64,000 nucleotides of DNA, taken from a virus. Its lineage: Duplodnaviria; Caudoviricetes. The translations under genes and the position numbers were made by a program. Location of the stretch: IMG/VR virus record IMGVR_UViG_3300028549_001530, positions 1 to 64,000 of that record; one strand, 5' to 3'. The notes under the pieces were generated by a model. The model did not search any database and was not told the origin of the DNA. It was given only the letters and a program-made list of their open reading frames with translations. This document shows, in pieces, positions 14,674-54,864 of this stretch (its first letter is position 1; each line of letters begins with the position of its first letter).

Positions 14674-14716
14674 ATTTGTCTATTAAATTTTAGGTATTTC
14701 TGAATGTATGTCAACT

Positions 14717-14735
14717 ACATATATACTAATTGTAA
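14717..14735 (+). promoter_or_regulatory. Phage early-type promoter motif
   Basis: ACATATATACTAATTGTAA. Confidence 0.75.
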
Positions 14736-28671: not shown

Positions 28672-29655
28672 ATGTCAACAGTTACTTTTCAATATTCATT
28701 AGCTAATACATCAGGTTATAAATTCAATATCACTAAAATCGGTTTTAATAATTACGATGACCTAGCCTATTACAATAAAGAAAATTTTCCTGATATTGAA
28801 ATAACTAGACCAGCAACAGATACAGATTTAAAGTCTCTTGATAGTAAAGCTTTAATAACTGTTAATGGTTACGTACACAATACAACTGTTATAGAAAATA
28901 GACTTTATGTCGCTAACGCCACTAAAAGTATGTTAAGGTCTAGAGAAAATAACATAGGTATTTTTAGTTTTAACAGTCTGCCTGGGGTGTTAACTAAGAC
29001 TCCTATCACTGCTGATATGATTACACCAGAGGCACCTTTTACCCTATATGAAAAAGCAGTCATCACCTTTAACTCTCCTGTTAATTGTCCTATTCTTGTT
29101 GTTTGTGGTTACCTTATATTTGAAAACCCAGAAGTTTTCTATAGAGTTTCTCCTAACGCATATGTACTTAGAATGGATAAAATCAATTATATAGAGAAAC
29201 TCTATGAATTAAAAAGGAGTAGGGATATTTTCACTGAGTTAGATATTCCTATTTCACCTAATAATGTAAGCATGATAGATGCTAATACAGTTAGGTCTGA
29301 GGTAGCTATTACTAAATTCTTAACTACGTTTAATTCATTTTTAGTAGACTTACCTGTTAACAACCTATCAGTAGATAGAGTCTATCTTGAGCATAGCAAT
29401 ATACCAGGAAACTTTAGAACTGAGCTTGAACCAACACTACCAATTATGGTAGGATATGGTAAACTAGCAGAATATAGTAAAAGAAAAACTACAGAAAATA
29501 AATACACTGTTTATGTCAATGACGCTTACTATAATAAACATTTATTTTCTAATACTAGTTATGGTAATATAAATGTTTATAATGACCATAGGCAAGTTGG
29601 AAGTACTTATGCCTTGACTCAAGCATTTTTCTTAAAAGTGTCAACAACAATTTAA
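28672..29655 (+). CDS. Conserved jumbo-phage protein, probably structural
   Basis: 327-aa ORF with RBS; terminator at 29661-29690. Confidence 0.5.
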   Translation: MSTVTFQYSLANTSGYKFNITKIGFNNYDDLAYYNKENFPDIEITRPATDTDLKSLDSKALITVNGYVHNTTVIENRLYVANATKSMLRSRENNIGIFSFNSLPGVLTKTPITADMITPEAPFTLYEKAVITFNSPVNCPILVVCGYLIFENPEVFYRVSPNAYVLRMDKINYIEKLYELKRSRDIFTELDIPISPNNVSMIDANTVRSEVAITKFLTTFNSFLVDLPVNNLSVDRVYLEHSNIPGNFRTELEPTLPIMVGYGKLAEYSKRKTTENKYTVYVNDAYYNKHLFSNTSYGNINVYNDHRQVGSTYALTQAFFLKVSTTI

Positions 29656-31203: not shown

Positions 31204-31222
31204 ACATATATATTTGTTGTAA
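31204..31222 (+). promoter_or_regulatory. Phage early-type promoter motif upstream of the IsrB omegaRNA
   Basis: ACATATATATTTGTTGTAA. Confidence 0.75.
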
Positions 31223-31250
31223 GTAGTTTTAGTAGTACTTTCCCCAGCTA

Positions 31251-31462
31251 CTAAAACTTTCGTTTGGGGTGTCAACTACCTTGGACTGAAATCCAAGGCT
31301 TGGAGAGGGTTACCACATAACCCAACCTGGGACTAAACAGTTGTACTAGCCAAACTCTTAAATGAGTAACTAAGTCACCTTGCCGTGGAAGGCAGCAACA
31401 CGTTACGGATGCTCCCCTAGTCTGTATCCTCTGTGGTGGTTAGTGGCGAAGGGGTCCTCACT
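31251..31462 (+). ncRNA. IsrB omegaRNA (HEARO-like) with 5' guide
   Basis: Scaffold starts GTCAACTACC-hairpin(CCTTGGACTGAAATCCAAGG)-CTTG at 31271 and continues GTTGTACTAGCC, CACGTT, GGATGCTCCCCTAGTCTG and TGGCGAAGGG, hallmarks of IscB/IsrB omegaRNAs; guide is the ~20 nt upstream. Confidence 0.85.
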
Positions 31463-31494
31463 TGTGTCAAACGAAGTTCCGTAAGGTAACCAAT

Positions 31495-32622
31495 ATGCAT
31501 CCTGAATCAACTCAACCCTGGGTACCTGTAGTTTCCTCTATAGGTATCCCTCTCATGCCTTGCCACCCGGCAAGAGCTCGTAAACTCATAGCAGCTGGTA
31601 GAGCTATCCCTCGTTATAAGAAAGGTCTATTCTACATTAAGTTACTAGATCGTGAAACTGGAGATACTCAACCCATCGCGCTTGGCATCGACCCAGGTAG
31701 TAAGATGGAAGGCTACACAGTTAAAAGTGAAGCTCACACCTATGTCAATATTCAGAGTCACGCAAGGGATGGTAACGCTATTAAAAAGACAATGGAAGCT
31801 CGACACAATACTCGACACACTAGACGTAATAAAAACACTCCTTGTAGAGCTTTTAGACCTAATAGAGCACGTTCAGCTAACTGGGTTCCACCTTCTACTA
31901 AAGCCAGGTGGCAACTCAAGTACAATATCTTCAACTGGCTATGTCAACTGTACCCTATCACATGTGTAATCATAGAGGATGTTAAAGCCAGAACCAAAGC
32001 CGGTGACTACAGGTGGAACAACAACTTCTCACCTATACAAGCTGGCAAAAACTGGCTCTACTCTAGGTTACGTGCTACAGGTGTAGAGCTAAGACTGGTA
32101 GAAGGTATGGATACTTACAACCTTCGTCAGTCCTTAGGGCTTCAGAAGTCTAAGAACAAATTGGCTACTATCTTTTCAGCACACTGTGTAGATAGCTGGG
32201 TGCTAGCTAATAGTTACGTTGGTGGTCATATCTCACCAGAGTTAATAGAAGTCTTAGTCCTTAAACCACTTTCTATCTGTAAAAGACAACTTCATAGATT
32301 CAATCCTTCTAAAGGTGGTAATAGACAAAGATACGGTGGATCTATGTCTACAGGTGTTAAAAAAGGAACATTAGCTATCCACCCTAAACATGGTAAATGT
32401 TATACAGGTGGATACCATAGTAAGACTGGTTTAACACTTCATACTCTTATAAGTGGTCAACGTTTATGTAGAAATGCTAAAGTATCTGATTTACAACTTG
32501 TAGCCTACTCCCCGTGGGTGTTACTAGTACCATCAACTCTCTCTAACCATAAGGAACAACGTGCACAACGACGCAATTATTACAGATTTCATCAGAGTCT
32601 ATCACTAACTAAATTTATATAG
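31495..32622 (+). CDS. isrB: IsrB RNA-guided nickase (IscB family lacking HNH)
   Basis: PLMP motif, RuvC-I GIDPG, Arg-rich bridge helix, RuvC-II IIEDV, RuvC-III HCVDS; no HNH insert; ~375 aa. Confidence 0.88.
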   Translation: MHPESTQPWVPVVSSIGIPLMPCHPARARKLIAAGRAIPRYKKGLFYIKLLDRETGDTQPIALGIDPGSKMEGYTVKSEAHTYVNIQSHARDGNAIKKTMEARHNTRHTRRNKNTPCRAFRPNRARSANWVPPSTKARWQLKYNIFNWLCQLYPITCVIIEDVKARTKAGDYRWNNNFSPIQAGKNWLYSRLRATGVELRLVEGMDTYNLRQSLGLQKSKNKLATIFSAHCVDSWVLANSYVGGHISPELIEVLVLKPLSICKRQLHRFNPSKGGNRQRYGGSMSTGVKKGTLAIHPKHGKCYTGGYHSKTGLTLHTLISGQRLCRNAKVSDLQLVAYSPWVLLVPSTLSNHKEQRAQRRNYYRFHQSLSLTKFI

Positions 32623-32659
32623 AAGTTTTAGTTTATATCGTAACAAAAGGAGTATTTTC

Positions 32660-33184
32660 ATGAATTTTAAAGAAATGGTTAACTTGTATTCAGAAGAAGG
32701 AACTGAGCACTTTCAGCTTTCTCCTTTGAGCTCTAGCATTGTTGGTAAGTTTCTATCTCCGGAATGGAGATATAAATTTTTCATACCTCAAATTGGTAAT
32801 TTCAATTCGGCTATCGGGTTCTGTAACTGGATTGCTGGAGCTGGTGAGGAGGCTAGGTATAATGACCGAGTTAAAGGTCACATCACCATTCCTTACAAGA
32901 TGCTTTTAACTGTGGGTAAATACCACCAGTTAAAAGCAATGGTGAATGAACTTAGAAAGTTTCCAGAAGACTGGGATAGTCTTCCGCTGGTTCGTTATAG
33001 GGTTCACCAAAACGGTGTCAAGGAGCTTACACCTGACAATGATTGGTATCCTCGTAATGTCCACATGCTGGCTCTGTGGGTGAGAGCTGAAATGGACCCA
33101 GAGTGGGATACATTTGACGCTAACACTAATCCATACGAAGTTATTGATAACCTTGTGAATGTTAACATTTTACGTAAAGGTTAG
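32660..33184 (+). CDS. Hypothetical protein
   Basis: AAGGAG RBS, 174 aa. Confidence 0.7.
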   Translation: MNFKEMVNLYSEEGTEHFQLSPLSSSIVGKFLSPEWRYKFFIPQIGNFNSAIGFCNWIAGAGEEARYNDRVKGHITIPYKMLLTVGKYHQLKAMVNELRKFPEDWDSLPLVRYRVHQNGVKELTPDNDWYPRNVHMLALWVRAEMDPEWDTFDANTNPYEVIDNLVNVNILRKG

Positions 33185-33297: not shown

Positions 33298-33660
33298 ATG
33301 GTAAAACACGGCGATCCGCCTTATCTAGAGTGTAGCTCAAAAGGTGACAAACGTTTTAGTGCATTTTGTGCTAGGATTAAAGCGAAAGACAATAAGTCTA
33401 TAGAAGAACTCTACCAAGCTTTCAAGATCTTTGAAGATGGTAGCACTAACTTGTCTTGGAAGCAAGCTAAAGGTAAAACCCCAGTTAATATCTCAGATTG
33501 TATTGTTTTCTACAATAGACTTTGGTTAGAATATCTAGAAGAAAATCCTCAGCTCAAAGATGTTGTTAAACAAGCCAAAGGACTCTCAGATATCTTTGGA
33601 CAAAAAGGTAGACAATGTCAAGCAACAAGTCTTTGGAACATAAGGAGTACACTTTTTTAA
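33298..33660 (+). CDS. Conserved phage hypothetical protein (LECSSKGDKRFSAF family)
   Basis: Recognisable N-terminal motif; function not established from the sequence. Confidence 0.55.
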   Translation: MVKHGDPPYLECSSKGDKRFSAFCARIKAKDNKSIEELYQAFKIFEDGSTNLSWKQAKGKTPVNISDCIVFYNRLWLEYLEENPQLKDVVKQAKGLSDIFGQKGRQCQATSLWNIRSTLF

Positions 33661-34771: not shown

Positions 34772-36931
34772 CTACCTATTTGTGACGTCCTGGATAGCTG
34801 CTTGATTGTTACCTAATATATTTTGTAGTAGTCCGCTAAACGGAACTTTATTAACAGTAAAAGCAGCAAACGCAGCTGGGTCTGGATTAGCAATTGCTTT
34901 TAATGCCATATATCTTTCTGCTAATTTTAATCTCATCATAGGAACTCTATAAATCATTGTATACACATCAACAGCCATAACACTGTTTAAATAAGAAATA
35001 AAAGGTGTATCTGCAAATTTTGGACTTATTTGTGCAGCTATATTGGAAATAATACCGCTGCTTGCTATATCCACAGAAATAACTTCATCCATATTAGCTA
35101 TAGATAAATCTATATCAATAGCGTTAGGATGACCACTCTTACTAAAACCTAGATTAGAAGTACCTCTTGTAATAGAGACAGTCTCTATCATACCTAGTTG
35201 AATATTAGATCTACCTCTATCAAACAACTGACACATAAAAGGAGATGTGTAAGAAGAATTACCTGTTGACCTAGGTAAACTTCCAGCTAATATCATAGAT
35301 AAAGGTAAATAGATATTAAAAAGTTGCGAATAAGCATTACCATATGGAGATATTAACTTTATTTTATAACTAGATCTTGGCAGTGACGCTGAGCTAGATT
35401 CCCATATTTTTGGCATAGATACATTAACACCATAAGCTAAAGCTAATAACGGATTAGCTAAACCAAAAGTAGATTTACTTAAGATAGTCGCTCCTGTGTC
35501 TGCAGCTAACTTTAAAGCATCCCCGATAACAGGAATACTTGCAACTGATTCAAGCATATTACCTATGTTTCTGGACTTAGCACTTAACGAATTAAAGGTA
35601 GATTCAATAGGATTGCTTCCAGATGAACTAGAAAAAGATTCCCCCACAGACCCAGTTGAGTCAACATTAAAAACAGCAAAAGCAGCACCTTCTGATAGTT
35701 CTGCTAATAAGTATTCTTTATACTTATCAAAAGTTGGTTTCTTTTTCTTAGCGTTGTCTTCTAAAAATTGATCTACTTTAATATCAGATGTTGGGTCTAG
35801 TGTAAGTATTTCACCATTCTCATCAGTATATAAAGGATCATAAGCAACTACAGATTTTTGTGTTCCTTCTTTGCTATCTAAATTCTTCTGCTCGGTCTTA
35901 TCATCCTTAATTAATAAATTGTAAGCTTTATCAAATAAGTTTTTTGTAAAAAAACTAGCTCTACCTTCCCTATTAGTAAAATAAGTATCATGTACACCAG
36001 CTTCATTTATAGGATAACCTGAAAAGTCTTTATTAGTCATTTCATCAGAGACTTTAGCATTAGCGTTTTTATCGTAGTCAGCTTTTTGCATTTTATTAAA
36101 AGCAGATTGTGATTTTAATGCTAAAGCAAACACACTTATTCTACCAGTTTTTGCGTCTATAACATCTGGTAATAATGTGTTAAGTTCTGATATATAAGTA
36201 GATGTAGGTTTTTGTGTCTCACCTATTTTGTTATCTAGTTTAAAAGTAAAGTCTTGAAATACACCTGGAAGCATTGTTCTTCTTGCTACCATGTTGTTTA
36301 ACATGTTCTCTACAGTTGACCAGTAGATATACATAGTAGGTTTAACAGAATAGAAACGACTACTCTCACTTAAAGCTGTTGCTACAAACATACCTAAAGC
36401 TAATAATTGAGCAGCAGCAACAGCAAAAAAGGTAGAAATAACTCCAACAGCTTCTAAGAATGTTGTTGTTATAACACCTCTATTTTGTAATATAGTCTTA
36501 TCGATGTCAAAAGACTTTGTTATCCATAAAAGTAAAGGCATAAACTTAGGTACACCAAACCTTAAATAGATTCTTTGTTCATTGTCGTCTATAGCTTCAG
36601 AGTAGTATCTACCCATACCTAGACCATTAGGATCACCTTTTCCACTCAAACTTACATCAGGTCTACCAGGGAGTTTACCCTTACTTCTTATATCAGCATA
36701 CCTCGTAAACTGTGGTTTAGGGTTTACAGCTATATTCATACCTGGTGTTGTAGATGTAAACTTATAGTCAGCTGAAGAATGATACCTATTCTTTCTAATC
36801 CATTTTTTATACTCTGTACCTTGTACAATATCTTTATCAGCTATAATGAAAGTAGATTTAACCCATTCTCTATCATAAACACCATCAGTAGCATTCCTTG
36901 TTTGATCTGTTTTAACTGATACATCCACCAT
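34772..36931 (-). CDS. phiKZ-like virion structural protein (putative)
   Basis: RYYSEAIDDN, FTSTTPG and LPRSTG..SYTSPF motifs; start adjusted to the RBS-supported ATG 36931. Confidence 0.55.
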   Translation of the reverse strand: MVDVSVKTDQTRNATDGVYDREWVKSTFIIADKDIVQGTEYKKWIRKNRYHSSADYKFTSTTPGMNIAVNPKPQFTRYADIRSKGKLPGRPDVSLSGKGDPNGLGMGRYYSEAIDDNEQRIYLRFGVPKFMPLLLWITKSFDIDKTILQNRGVITTTFLEAVGVISTFFAVAAAQLLALGMFVATALSESSRFYSVKPTMYIYWSTVENMLNNMVARRTMLPGVFQDFTFKLDNKIGETQKPTSTYISELNTLLPDVIDAKTGRISVFALALKSQSAFNKMQKADYDKNANAKVSDEMTNKDFSGYPINEAGVHDTYFTNREGRASFFTKNLFDKAYNLLIKDDKTEQKNLDSKEGTQKSVVAYDPLYTDENGEILTLDPTSDIKVDQFLEDNAKKKKPTFDKYKEYLLAELSEGAAFAVFNVDSTGSVGESFSSSSGSNPIESTFNSLSAKSRNIGNMLESVASIPVIGDALKLAADTGATILSKSTFGLANPLLALAYGVNVSMPKIWESSSASLPRSSYKIKLISPYGNAYSQLFNIYLPLSMILAGSLPRSTGNSSYTSPFMCQLFDRGRSNIQLGMIETVSITRGTSNLGFSKSGHPNAIDIDLSIANMDEVISVDIASSGIISNIAAQISPKFADTPFISYLNSVMAVDVYTMIYRVPMMRLKLAERYMALKAIANPDPAAFAAFTVNKVPFSGLLQNILGNNQAAIQDVTNR

Positions 36932-53353: not shown

Positions 53354-54864
53354 CTAAGATTTAGCTAAAACCCCGGCCTTTAATTCGTTTCACTCATTGC
53401 TCTTCGAGTAGGCCGGGGATACAGCGTAAATACTATGGTTATACAACCAGGCTTCCAGAACTTAATGAAAGGGTTACAACATGGAACAGTCTCCTAAAAA
53501 GCCCTTTGTTAAGGGTTACAAATACCGCATCTACCCAACAGACGAACAAAAGCACTTCTTAGCTAAAACCTTCGGTGCTTGTCGCTTCCTCTATAACAAA
53601 GTCCTGGCAGACACCCAAAGGGAACATCAAGCCTACGTTTTTGCCAAAGAAAATGGCACACTCACTGATACCATCAAAGAGCCTAACCTCTCTTCTAACG
53701 CCCTAGCCTACAGAGTATCCACACACCGTAATAACCCAGAGACTGCTTGGCTACAAGAGACATCCTCTGTGGCCTTGCAGCAAGCTCTTATACACTTAGG
53801 AGGTGCTTATGAGCGCTACTTCAAGTCACTCAAGAGTGTGCGTAAAGGCCGCTTCTCTAAGCCAACCTTCAAGAAGAAAGTAGAGCGCCAGTCGTTCAAC
53901 CTGATGGGAAATGGCTTTCGCCTTAAAGACCACCAACTCTATATCGCTAAGCTAGACACTCCCCTTAAAGTCATTTGGTCCAGAGAGTTGCCAAGCTACC
54001 CCACTTCTCTGGCTATCTCCAAGACACCCTCAGGGGAGTACTACGTCTCCTTCACCTGTGAGTACACTCCTCAAAAGACTGCCGGTGAGACCAACGTAGG
54101 CATCGACCTAGGCATCAAAACCTATGCAACTCTCTCTACAGGTGACAAACTAGAGAACCCACGGTGGCTTCAAAACCACCTTAAATCCCTTAAGCGTCAC
54201 CAGCAATCCCTCTCAAGGAAAACCAAAGGAAGTAAGAACCGCACTAAATCTAGAATCAAAGTAGCCAAGCTACACCAAAAGGTCACCAACGCCCGTCATG
54301 ACTGGCAACACAAGGCAACTCGTACACTGGTTAACAATAGCCACGTAATCGGTGTAGAAGCCCTAGCTGTCGCCAACATGATACGTAACCGCAAGCTCAG
54401 TAAAGCTATACAAGACGCAGCCTGGTCTTCGTTCTTTCAGAAGCTTCAGTACAAGGTGGTGGAATCCCAACATGCTACCCTCATCTATATGAGCACCTTC
54501 TACCCAAGCAGCCATATCTGTTCACTAACAGGTAAGCAGCTTGAGAGGAAGCTCTTACTAGACGAGCGCACTTGGGACTGTCCGTTCTGTGGCAACACAC
54601 ACGACAGAGACCTTAACGCAGCAGCTAACATCGAGAATAAGGCTATGGAGCTCTATGCTACACTGCCCGTCTCGAAGTCACACCACGGTGAAGTAGCCGT
54701 CGTAGCTGGCTAATCTAACAACACCTGAGAGGGCACTCAGGTTCAGACCATGGAGAGTTCTTCACCTCTACTATCAGGCAACTGGTAGCATGTACCTCTT
54801 TGAAGTGGTAACCCCTAATGGTAACCTTAGGAATCCCCGGCCTTCAGGCCGGGGAGGATGTCAA
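53354..54864 (+). mobile_element. Complete non-autonomous IS200/IS605 element (tnpB only), copy 2; inferred TAM TTAT
   Basis: TTAT at 53350-53353; AAAA at the foot of the LE hairpin ccccggcct...aggccgggg; RE GAAT-hairpin-TCAA. Ends obey IS608-type guide/cleavage pairing rules; no tnpA. Confidence 0.88.
53481..54713 (+). CDS. tnpB: TnpB RNA-guided endonuclease, copy 2
   Basis: KGYKYRIYPT HTH, GIDLG, VEAL, HDRDLNAA; 410 aa. Confidence 0.96.
   Translation: MEQSPKKPFVKGYKYRIYPTDEQKHFLAKTFGACRFLYNKVLADTQREHQAYVFAKENGTLTDTIKEPNLSSNALAYRVSTHRNNPETAWLQETSSVALQQALIHLGGAYERYFKSLKSVRKGRFSKPTFKKKVERQSFNLMGNGFRLKDHQLYIAKLDTPLKVIWSRELPSYPTSLAISKTPSGEYYVSFTCEYTPQKTAGETNVGIDLGIKTYATLSTGDKLENPRWLQNHLKSLKRHQQSLSRKTKGSKNRTKSRIKVAKLHQKVTNARHDWQHKATRTLVNNSHVIGVEALAVANMIRNRKLSKAIQDAAWSSFFQKLQYKVVESQHATLIYMSTFYPSSHICSLTGKQLERKLLLDERTWDCPFCGNTHDRDLNAAANIENKAMELYATLPVSKSHHGEVAVVAG

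Follow-up and report, generated by a model that had tools for sequence, protein, structure and literature searches.

The DNA stretch analyzed here (the window) comprises 64,000 nucleotides of a tailed phage, positions 1 to 64,000 of the IMG/VR record IMGVR_UViG_3300028549_001530, and is part of an 88.5-kb contig. At positions 31271 to 32648, on the + strand, it carries an IsrB-omegaRNA element, non-autonomous and belonging to the IS200/605-type OMEGA class, which lies in the 5' untranslated region (5'UTR) of a phage gene, between the native promoter and the ribosome-binding site (RBS) of that gene. The nearest relative of the phage is Bacillus phage vB_BspM_AgentSmith (MW749006), with a genome of 200,233 bp, and the proteins encoded in the flanks more distantly resemble those of phiKZ-like phages. 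A first-pass annotation, made from the letters of the DNA, had described an intact IsrB-omegaRNA system in a jumbo phage, and every one of its sequence-level statements was found again. The jumbo size agrees with the genome of the nearest relative but is an estimate, as the contig has a CheckV completeness of 44%. A megablast search against INPHARED returned no record of a phage near-identical at the locus.

The region contains one long + strand open reading frame (ORF), isrB (31495 to 32622), encoding 375 amino acids with a PLMP motif, a split RuvC domain, an arginine-rich bridge helix and a domain interacting with the target-adjacent motif (TAM). The product matches Pfam RRXRR (126 bits, E 1.9e-36), and its best match in the PDB is DtIsrB from Desulfovirgula thermocuniculi (8DMB; E 2.6e-43 as a single sequence). 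With a profile made from 37 homologues, the alignment to 8DMB covers residues 9 to 341 (E 1.4e-63), reaching through the C-terminal TAM-interacting domain to DtIsrB residue 338; this agreement in sequence is enough to settle the fold. Structures of IscB match the first ~120 residues only, and the NCBIfam model guided_IscB covers the N-terminal half, under the model cutoff. The RuvC catalytic residues D66, E161, H230 and D233 are invariant across the 37 homologues and all kept in the window protein, as are the phosphate-lock asparagine and the PLMPC motif, which is nearly invariant in the family alignment. No HNH family was found in the product at E<=1; the 69 residues from the RuvC-II glutamate (E161) to the RuvC-III histidine (H230) form only a linker, which aligns without insertion to that of DtIsrB. 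These results bear out the annotation of an HNH-less protein of the IscB family with intact catalytic residues. Because all close homologues begin there and the conservation of the upstream RNA continues to ~31490, the true start is most likely the ATG at 31495 and not the TTG at 31462. The ratio of nonsynonymous to synonymous substitutions (dN/dS), a check proposed with the annotation, is 0.15 and 0.11 relative to the closest relatives (L010 and L012, respectively), and the identical protein is encoded in contigs of JGI, ENA and Logan assemblies. The protein is thus intact and under purifying selection.

The omegaRNA scaffold lies directly upstream (31271 to 31494, + strand), with conservation extending to ~31490. 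A covariance model, R1, was built from 16 other viral omegaRNA loci, with the window and its two nearest relatives excluded. It matches positions 31271 to 31462 with 131.7 bits (E 2e-30), a score as good as those of relatives with both ends intact, and gave no match on the allele without the element that is described below. In an alignment of 20 sequences, 25 of the 33 consensus pairs show compensatory double substitutions. The RNA is therefore intact and of the IsrB omegaRNA type, in line with the full omegaRNA that had been annotated. The Rfam family HEARO (RF02033), suggested earlier as a check, matches 31271 to 31461 over the full length of the model, but with 32.7 bits (E 1.7e-4) the match stays under the gathering score of 83 bits. 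Hence, the RNA is homologous to HEARO in architecture without being a member by the Rfam criterion, the IsrB-type RNA being a shorter relative. The first scaffold bases (GTCAACTACC and the hairpin at 31279 to 31298) double as the left end of the element: in 7 homologous loci alignability begins exactly at GTCAACTACC (31271), and the first hairpin varies among homologous loci by compensatory substitutions.

Where exactly does the element begin and end? An exact-sequence look-up of the 174-amino-acid protein encoded downstream retrieved contigs of the same phage both with and without IsrB. The empty allele is carried by two sister contigs, L093 and L110, the latter from a scan of metagenome contigs. 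In both, the leader (...TTTGGGGT) is joined directly to AAGGAG-N7-ATG with no insert, so that the insert is 31271 to 32648, or 1378 bp. Both junctions are exact, a target-site duplication is absent, and the G+C content of the element (0.42) stands out from that of the phage (0.30 to 0.34). The occupied allele is the majority, present in at least 8 of 11 contigs from independent datasets. Two earlier readings of the boundaries were rejected. A right junction placed just before ATGA, with the RBS in the tail of the element, had been modelled on ~15 relatives and was refuted by the empty allele, in which the RBS belongs to the phage and the junction precedes AAGGAG. A flanking direct repeat, the 9-mer AGTTTTAGT at 31229 and 32624, was taken as a chance match, the left copy being native leader according to the empty allele.

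The comparison of alleles also shows directly that the guide is the phage's own leader, as the first-pass annotation had claimed. The guide segment (31251 to 31270, + strand), delimited by the onset of conservation at 31271, consists of the final 20 nt of the native 5'UTR and adjoins the scaffold. In the empty allele the same 20-mer is followed immediately by AAGGAG, so that the adjacent 4 nt are AAGG. The annotation had advised searching for the guide elsewhere, and the empty alleles of the sister phages do match it; the 88.5-kb contig has no other match with <=4 mismatches, and an exact search for the 20-mer in viral contigs gave no match. A 16-mer guide scan of metagenome contigs gave, among the matches listed, almost exclusively chance matches and one further empty allele (L110), and it provides no allele frequencies.

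Native phage sequence extends over the promoter, the hairpin of the leader and the 20 nt adjoining the scaffold. The promoter motif (ACATATATATT-nn-TTGTAA; 31204 to 31222, + strand) is present in the empty allele L093 and belongs to the downstream gene, whose RBS (AAGGAG) and 174-amino-acid coding sequence, without a Pfam match, occupy 32649 to 33184 on the + strand. It was neither brought by the element nor evolved for it; the element landed in the 5'UTR of that gene. The window contains 7 instances of the motif ACATATATAyT-nnn-TGTrA, every one on the + strand, where 0.05 would be expected, and further copies occur in the rest of the contig, each 25 to 45 nt upstream of an RBS. The mapped consensus of early promoters of the virion RNA polymerase (RNAP) in the Bacillus jumbo phage AR9 is AAATATATATTAT-N6-G(+1) (PMC5312081); the window motif agrees with it at 10 of 13 positions and in the N6-G spacing, which predicts a transcription start at G31223, 48 nt before the scaffold. 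The promoter is placed where the annotation had put it, upstream by 48 nt, but "early" derives from the likeness to AR9: the promoter is probably early and of the virion-RNAP type. The sequence can also be read as a sigma-70-like promoter (TTGGAA-17-TATATT), and the sole RNAP signal in the window is a weak Rpb1 match. Behind the promoter, RNA folding predicts a native leader hairpin with a 12-bp stem (31225 to 31258, + strand), which is unchanged in the empty allele.

Two side observations concern this promoter and the gene that it serves. Two copies of the motif, at 14710 to 14727 of the window and 82832 to 82849 of the contig, are preceded by an identical stretch of ~30 nt, within which GTCAACTAC leads directly into ATATATACT. 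The nine bases ATATATACT are the same as the start of the omegaRNA and left end, which may be chance or a target-like sequence. Next after the 174-amino-acid gene, a gene for 120 amino acids (33298 to 33660) matches the family of DarT1-associated NADAR antitoxins (E 9.2e-10); the interrupted 5'UTR therefore heads a probable counter-defence operon.

While the left end is conserved, the right end is degenerate. Two relatives with 84% (L010) and 78% (L012) protein identity, both AgentSmith copies and ~12 other viral loci share a common right end, in which the stop codon is followed by a hairpin of the same sequence as the first omegaRNA hairpin and then by a tail of 20 to 28 nt. At the right end of the window element (32623 to 32648, + strand; junction set by the empty allele) no hairpin is present, and what remains is a terminal tail of ~14 nt (..TATATCGTAACAA) that resembles the tails of the relatives. 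Its 3' region folds with -2.3 kcal/mol (z +0.26), no better than shuffled sequences, compared with -11.7 kcal/mol (z -2.6) for L012. The same degenerate right end is present, identically, in all 8 occupied contigs, and by a crude scan ~60% of viral copies are without the right-end hairpin. The annotation had noted a hairpin at the omegaRNA end and none after the ORF, on which the comparison with relatives and the folding agree; its decayed distal end is correct as to the lost hairpin, but part of the end persists.

Transposases of the IS200/605 family require a subterminal hairpin at each end, and in the window element the left hairpin (31279 to 31298) is present and the right one absent. No Y1 (HUH) transposase TnpA (PF01797) was found in the 88.5-kb contig, which covers ~44% of the genome, nor in the complete AgentSmith genome. 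Because the right-end hairpin is lost and no Y1 transposase was found, TnpA-type mobility of the window copy is very unlikely, and with the hairpin gone any spread must be driven by the nuclease or by recombination. The earlier proposal of an immobilized and co-opted element stands as regards mobility of this type; the placement behind a probably early promoter, however, is a matter of the landing site, as the same promoter is present in the empty allele L093. AgentSmith has two IsrB copies (78 to 1205, - strand, and 72006 to 73133, + strand) that are 86% identical with a dN/dS of 0.23. In both, the left hairpin matches the right one and the omegaRNA is conserved. The site that is occupied in the window is empty in AgentSmith, where gp76 and gp77 are 10 nt apart.

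Outside the window, at positions 81298 to 81346 of the contig (G000; L013 2299 to 2347), lies a solo mini-element of 49 nt. It is made up of the left-end start GTCAACTACC, a single hairpin and a right-end tail with the same sequence as in L012; ATGA comes next. With its first G, the TAG stop codon of an upstream ORF of 265 amino acids becomes complete. It is either the scar of a full IsrB element that lost the part from one hairpin to the other or a derivative in miniature.

How did the element reach this site? Occupied and empty alleles are 99.3% identical across 3.5 kb rightward of it, and the differences are unevenly distributed. Five synonymous single-nucleotide polymorphisms (SNPs) fall within 28 nt (32680 to 32707), a tract resembling co-conversion, and the next difference is at 34961; leftward, the nearest are at 31224, 31114 and 31107. 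The SNP haplotype is perfectly linked to the element, as all 8 occupied contigs have one haplotype and both empty contigs the other. Co-conversion from a diverged donor would leave such a tract, which points to arrival through homologous recombination between phages and not by fresh transposition. Farther leftward, beyond ~1.4 kb, the identity of occupied and empty contigs falls sharply, so that the two phages are mosaics: upstream of common genes for 161 and 220/229 amino acids, L093 (1 to 1462) has the end of a 2444-amino-acid Kelch/beta-propeller repeat protein where the window (28672 to 29655) encodes a virion structural protein of 327 amino acids.

The published TAMs of IsrB are NTGA and NTG (PMC9581776), and an IsrB insertion in cyanophage Mic1 is at ATGA (PMC11237433); the ATGA found behind the right end in most viral relatives is consistent with both. 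In DtIsrB, R323 reads G at position 3 and Q326 reads A at position 4; with the mutation Q326R, G is accepted at position 4, and the TAM of BbIsrB is NTGG (PMC9581776). The profile alignment to 8DMB places R323 and R326 of the window protein at R323 and Q326 of DtIsrB, respectively. Among 77 viral homologues this reader pair is Arg/Gln in 53 and Arg/Arg in 10, and the two Arg/Arg loci whose right end is recognizable have the flanks ATGG and TTGG. Positions 3 and 4 of AAGG in the empty allele would thus fit the predicted Arg/Arg readers of the window protein. Next to the guide match in its own genome stands the scaffold DNA GTCA instead of a TAM. A correlation of the residue at position 326 with the flank was tried and set aside, as its support was weak: only these two Arg/Arg loci were usable, and loci with lysine at this position have mixed flanks (ATGA, ATGT).

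The placement of relatives with intact ends is also of note. Phage IsrB elements of this kind (L010, L012, L016, L019, L027, L038, L040, L048, L073, L074, L077, L085 and others) usually sit exactly between an RBS and ATGA, the RBS lying in the left flank, that is, inside the guide, and the ATGA often being the start codon of the next gene. Some of their right-end tails carry a GGAG of their own at RBS distance. This arrangement suggests that insertions leaving coding sequence undamaged are selected for, the TAM serving at the same time as start codon.

We hypothesize that the locus is best explained by an intact IsrB-omegaRNA unit in a phage 5'UTR that acts through nick-driven homing into the empty allele, a reading in which we have moderate confidence. 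Transcription from the native promoter would start near G31223 and yield one RNA composed of the 48-nt leader, whose last 20 nt would be the guide, the omegaRNA scaffold, isrB and the downstream genes. The IsrB ribonucleoprotein would have a single pairing partner, the uninterrupted leader that sister phages without the element carry, because the match in its own genome is followed by GTCA and not by a TAM. If AAGG is acceptable as a TAM, IsrB would nick the empty allele on its non-target strand during co-infection, and replication or repair would then copy the element in from the occupied genome. Such homing would need neither TnpA nor the right-end hairpin, and the element most likely entered the lineage by recombination of this kind with a diverged donor. 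Nicking of the empty allele is the standard homing model for OMEGA nucleases and not a new idea; a recent review regards them as homing endonucleases and counts co-infecting phages among the possible targets (PMC13565253). In the literature searched we found no experimental test of IsrB in homing between phages. We extend the hypothesis only tentatively to large phages at large, and consider it doubtful that their IsrB-omegaRNA units are TnpA-independent, RNA-guided nicking homing elements, transcribed early by the virion RNAP, that would nick the empty allele of co-infecting relatives and spread, or exclude rival markers, by recombination.

Several points weigh against homing. Expression and nicking activity are predictions from sequence. 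The promoter class is assigned by resemblance, and a reading as a host sigma-70-type promoter fits as well. In the predicted fold the leader hairpin sequesters the 8 TAM-distal nt of the guide, and the predicted primary transcript has 28 extra 5' nt ahead of the 20-nt guide. The dN/dS values span lineages that include end-intact copies and are no proof of selection after loss of the hairpin, and ordinary recombination without a nick would leave the same SNP tract. The empty allele may not be a substrate, as the flank of most viral relatives is ATGA, in many cases a start codon whose RBS lies in the left flank, and position 2 of the putative TAM in the empty allele is A, where the characterized IsrBs all prefer T (PMC9581776). 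The element could then be an intact unit that is inert here, unable to transpose for want of a right-end hairpin and TnpA and unable to home because AAGG is unusable, and persisting as a recent and harmless passenger linked to a successful haplotype. The departure of AAGG from NTGA/NTG(G) at position 2 and the ATGA flanks of most relatives agree with such a history, as do the loss of the hairpin in ~60% of viral copies (by the crude scan), which makes decay common, and the G+C content, which suggests recent arrival. We consider it possible but rather unlikely: the protein is free of defects and keeps all invariant residues, the score of the omegaRNA is on a par with those of relatives whose ends are intact, independent datasets show the occupied allele as the majority, and an arginine reader fits G at position 4 of the flank.

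If the loss of the mobility hairpin with protein and RNA intact is read differently, IsrB and its omegaRNA may be kept for the benefit of the phage, for example for early exclusion of close competitors (marker exclusion without homing) or for control of the downstream NADAR-like operon by the RNA or protein. The position directly behind an early-type promoter and the counter-defence appearance of the downstream genes would suit such a domesticated function, and a homing endonuclease of a jumbo phage is known to mediate competition (PMC11620839). We nevertheless find domestication improbable, since the promoter position is explained by the landing site and is shared with the empty allele, the guide equals the flank as in every OMEGA element with no other target in the contig, and the window copy is not distinguishable from selfish copies in relatives. 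Mobilization by a host-encoded TnpA, acting on the retained tail or on a cryptic structure in place of the hairpin, is more improbable still. The terminal ~14 nt do resemble the right-end tails of relatives, both junctions are exact and free of duplication, and the related AgentSmith copies occupy different sites without a TnpA in that phage. However, these transposases need both subterminal hairpins, the 3' region offers none that folds better than shuffled sequence, and all 8 occupied contigs have the identical degenerate end. Nick-driven homing remains the reading that we prefer.

The element resembles systems that are already known. IsrB and its omegaRNA are well characterized, including K2IsrB from a viral metagenome (PMC9581776). 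With DtIsrB (8DMB) the window protein shares the order of domains (PLMP, RuvC-I, bridge helix, RuvC-II, a short linker in place of HNH, RuvC-III, TAM-interacting domain), the conserved phosphate-lock asparagine and TAM-reading arginine, and a long structured omegaRNA just upstream whose 5' guide comes from the flank. It differs in having only ~35 to 40% identity, a scaffold of ~224 nt compared with ~262 nt, and arginine instead of glutamine as the reader of TAM position 4; moreover, the window copy lies in a phage 5'UTR. The closest known phage relative is AgentSmith (IsrB genes gp1 and gp73), likewise without TnpA, with 54% protein identity and a homologous omegaRNA that starts from the same GTCAACTACC and has a compensatory first hairpin; unlike the window copy, the AgentSmith copies keep a right-end hairpin matching the left one and are at other genome positions.

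IS200/IS605 (ISC1-type) OMEGA elements also insert seamlessly without target duplication, take the guide from flanking DNA so that only the empty site is targeted, and have the left-end hairpin inside the RNA gene (PMC13565253). The window element differs from them by the absence of TnpA, the loss of the right-end hairpin and a presumed target that is the genome of a co-infecting phage and not a sister chromosome. Phage homing endonucleases that nick or cut, such as the intron-encoded one of the jumbo phage PhiPA3 used in competition (PMC11620839), similarly have as their only target the allele of a related phage that lacks them, and flanking markers are co-converted. Their recognition depends on protein-DNA contacts, whereas here it would depend on a 20-nt RNA guide and a short TAM.

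IsrB genes are common in viral contigs. Scans of IMG/VR with single proteins (IsrB or the downstream gene) returned nothing useful, and a scan with the family alignment worked, finding at least 84 IsrB-like stretches, several of them on contigs of 100 to 485 kb; RRXRR genes are also annotated in several phages. The rarity implied by the first-pass annotation was hence overstated, and the window element therefore belongs to an already known kind of system, to which it adds one more case. It is ordinary within its family, and its value lies in the pair of occupied and empty alleles and in the Arg/Arg prediction. Direct tests of homing by OMEGA nucleases used sister chromosomes in bacteria. In the present case, one and the same phage occurs with and without the element, and the guide exactly matches the empty allele, a natural pair with which homing between co-infecting phages is testable. 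The Arg/Arg readers next to an AAGG flank constitute a checkable prediction of a shift in TAM specificity within IsrB, and AgentSmith, being culturable, offers a system for examining IsrB mobility. As an editing tool, the element would be one more compact nickase (375 amino acids and an RNA of ~224 nt) with no special advantage shown.

Two further observations concern OMEGA genes in this phage and its community. The window contains a second OMEGA-type gene, encoding TnpB (53481 to 54710; OrfB_IS605, HTH_OrfB_IS605 and Cas12f1-like TNB domains), which adjoins the 544-amino-acid - strand ORF that has the weak match to RNA polymerase Rpb1. Another contig of the same phage (L009, JGI 3300033516) starts 176 nt before the left end, the assembly breaking off shortly before the element; L010 and L012, with their 84% and 78% identical IsrB proteins, come from that sample too, so that several related elements coexist in that community.

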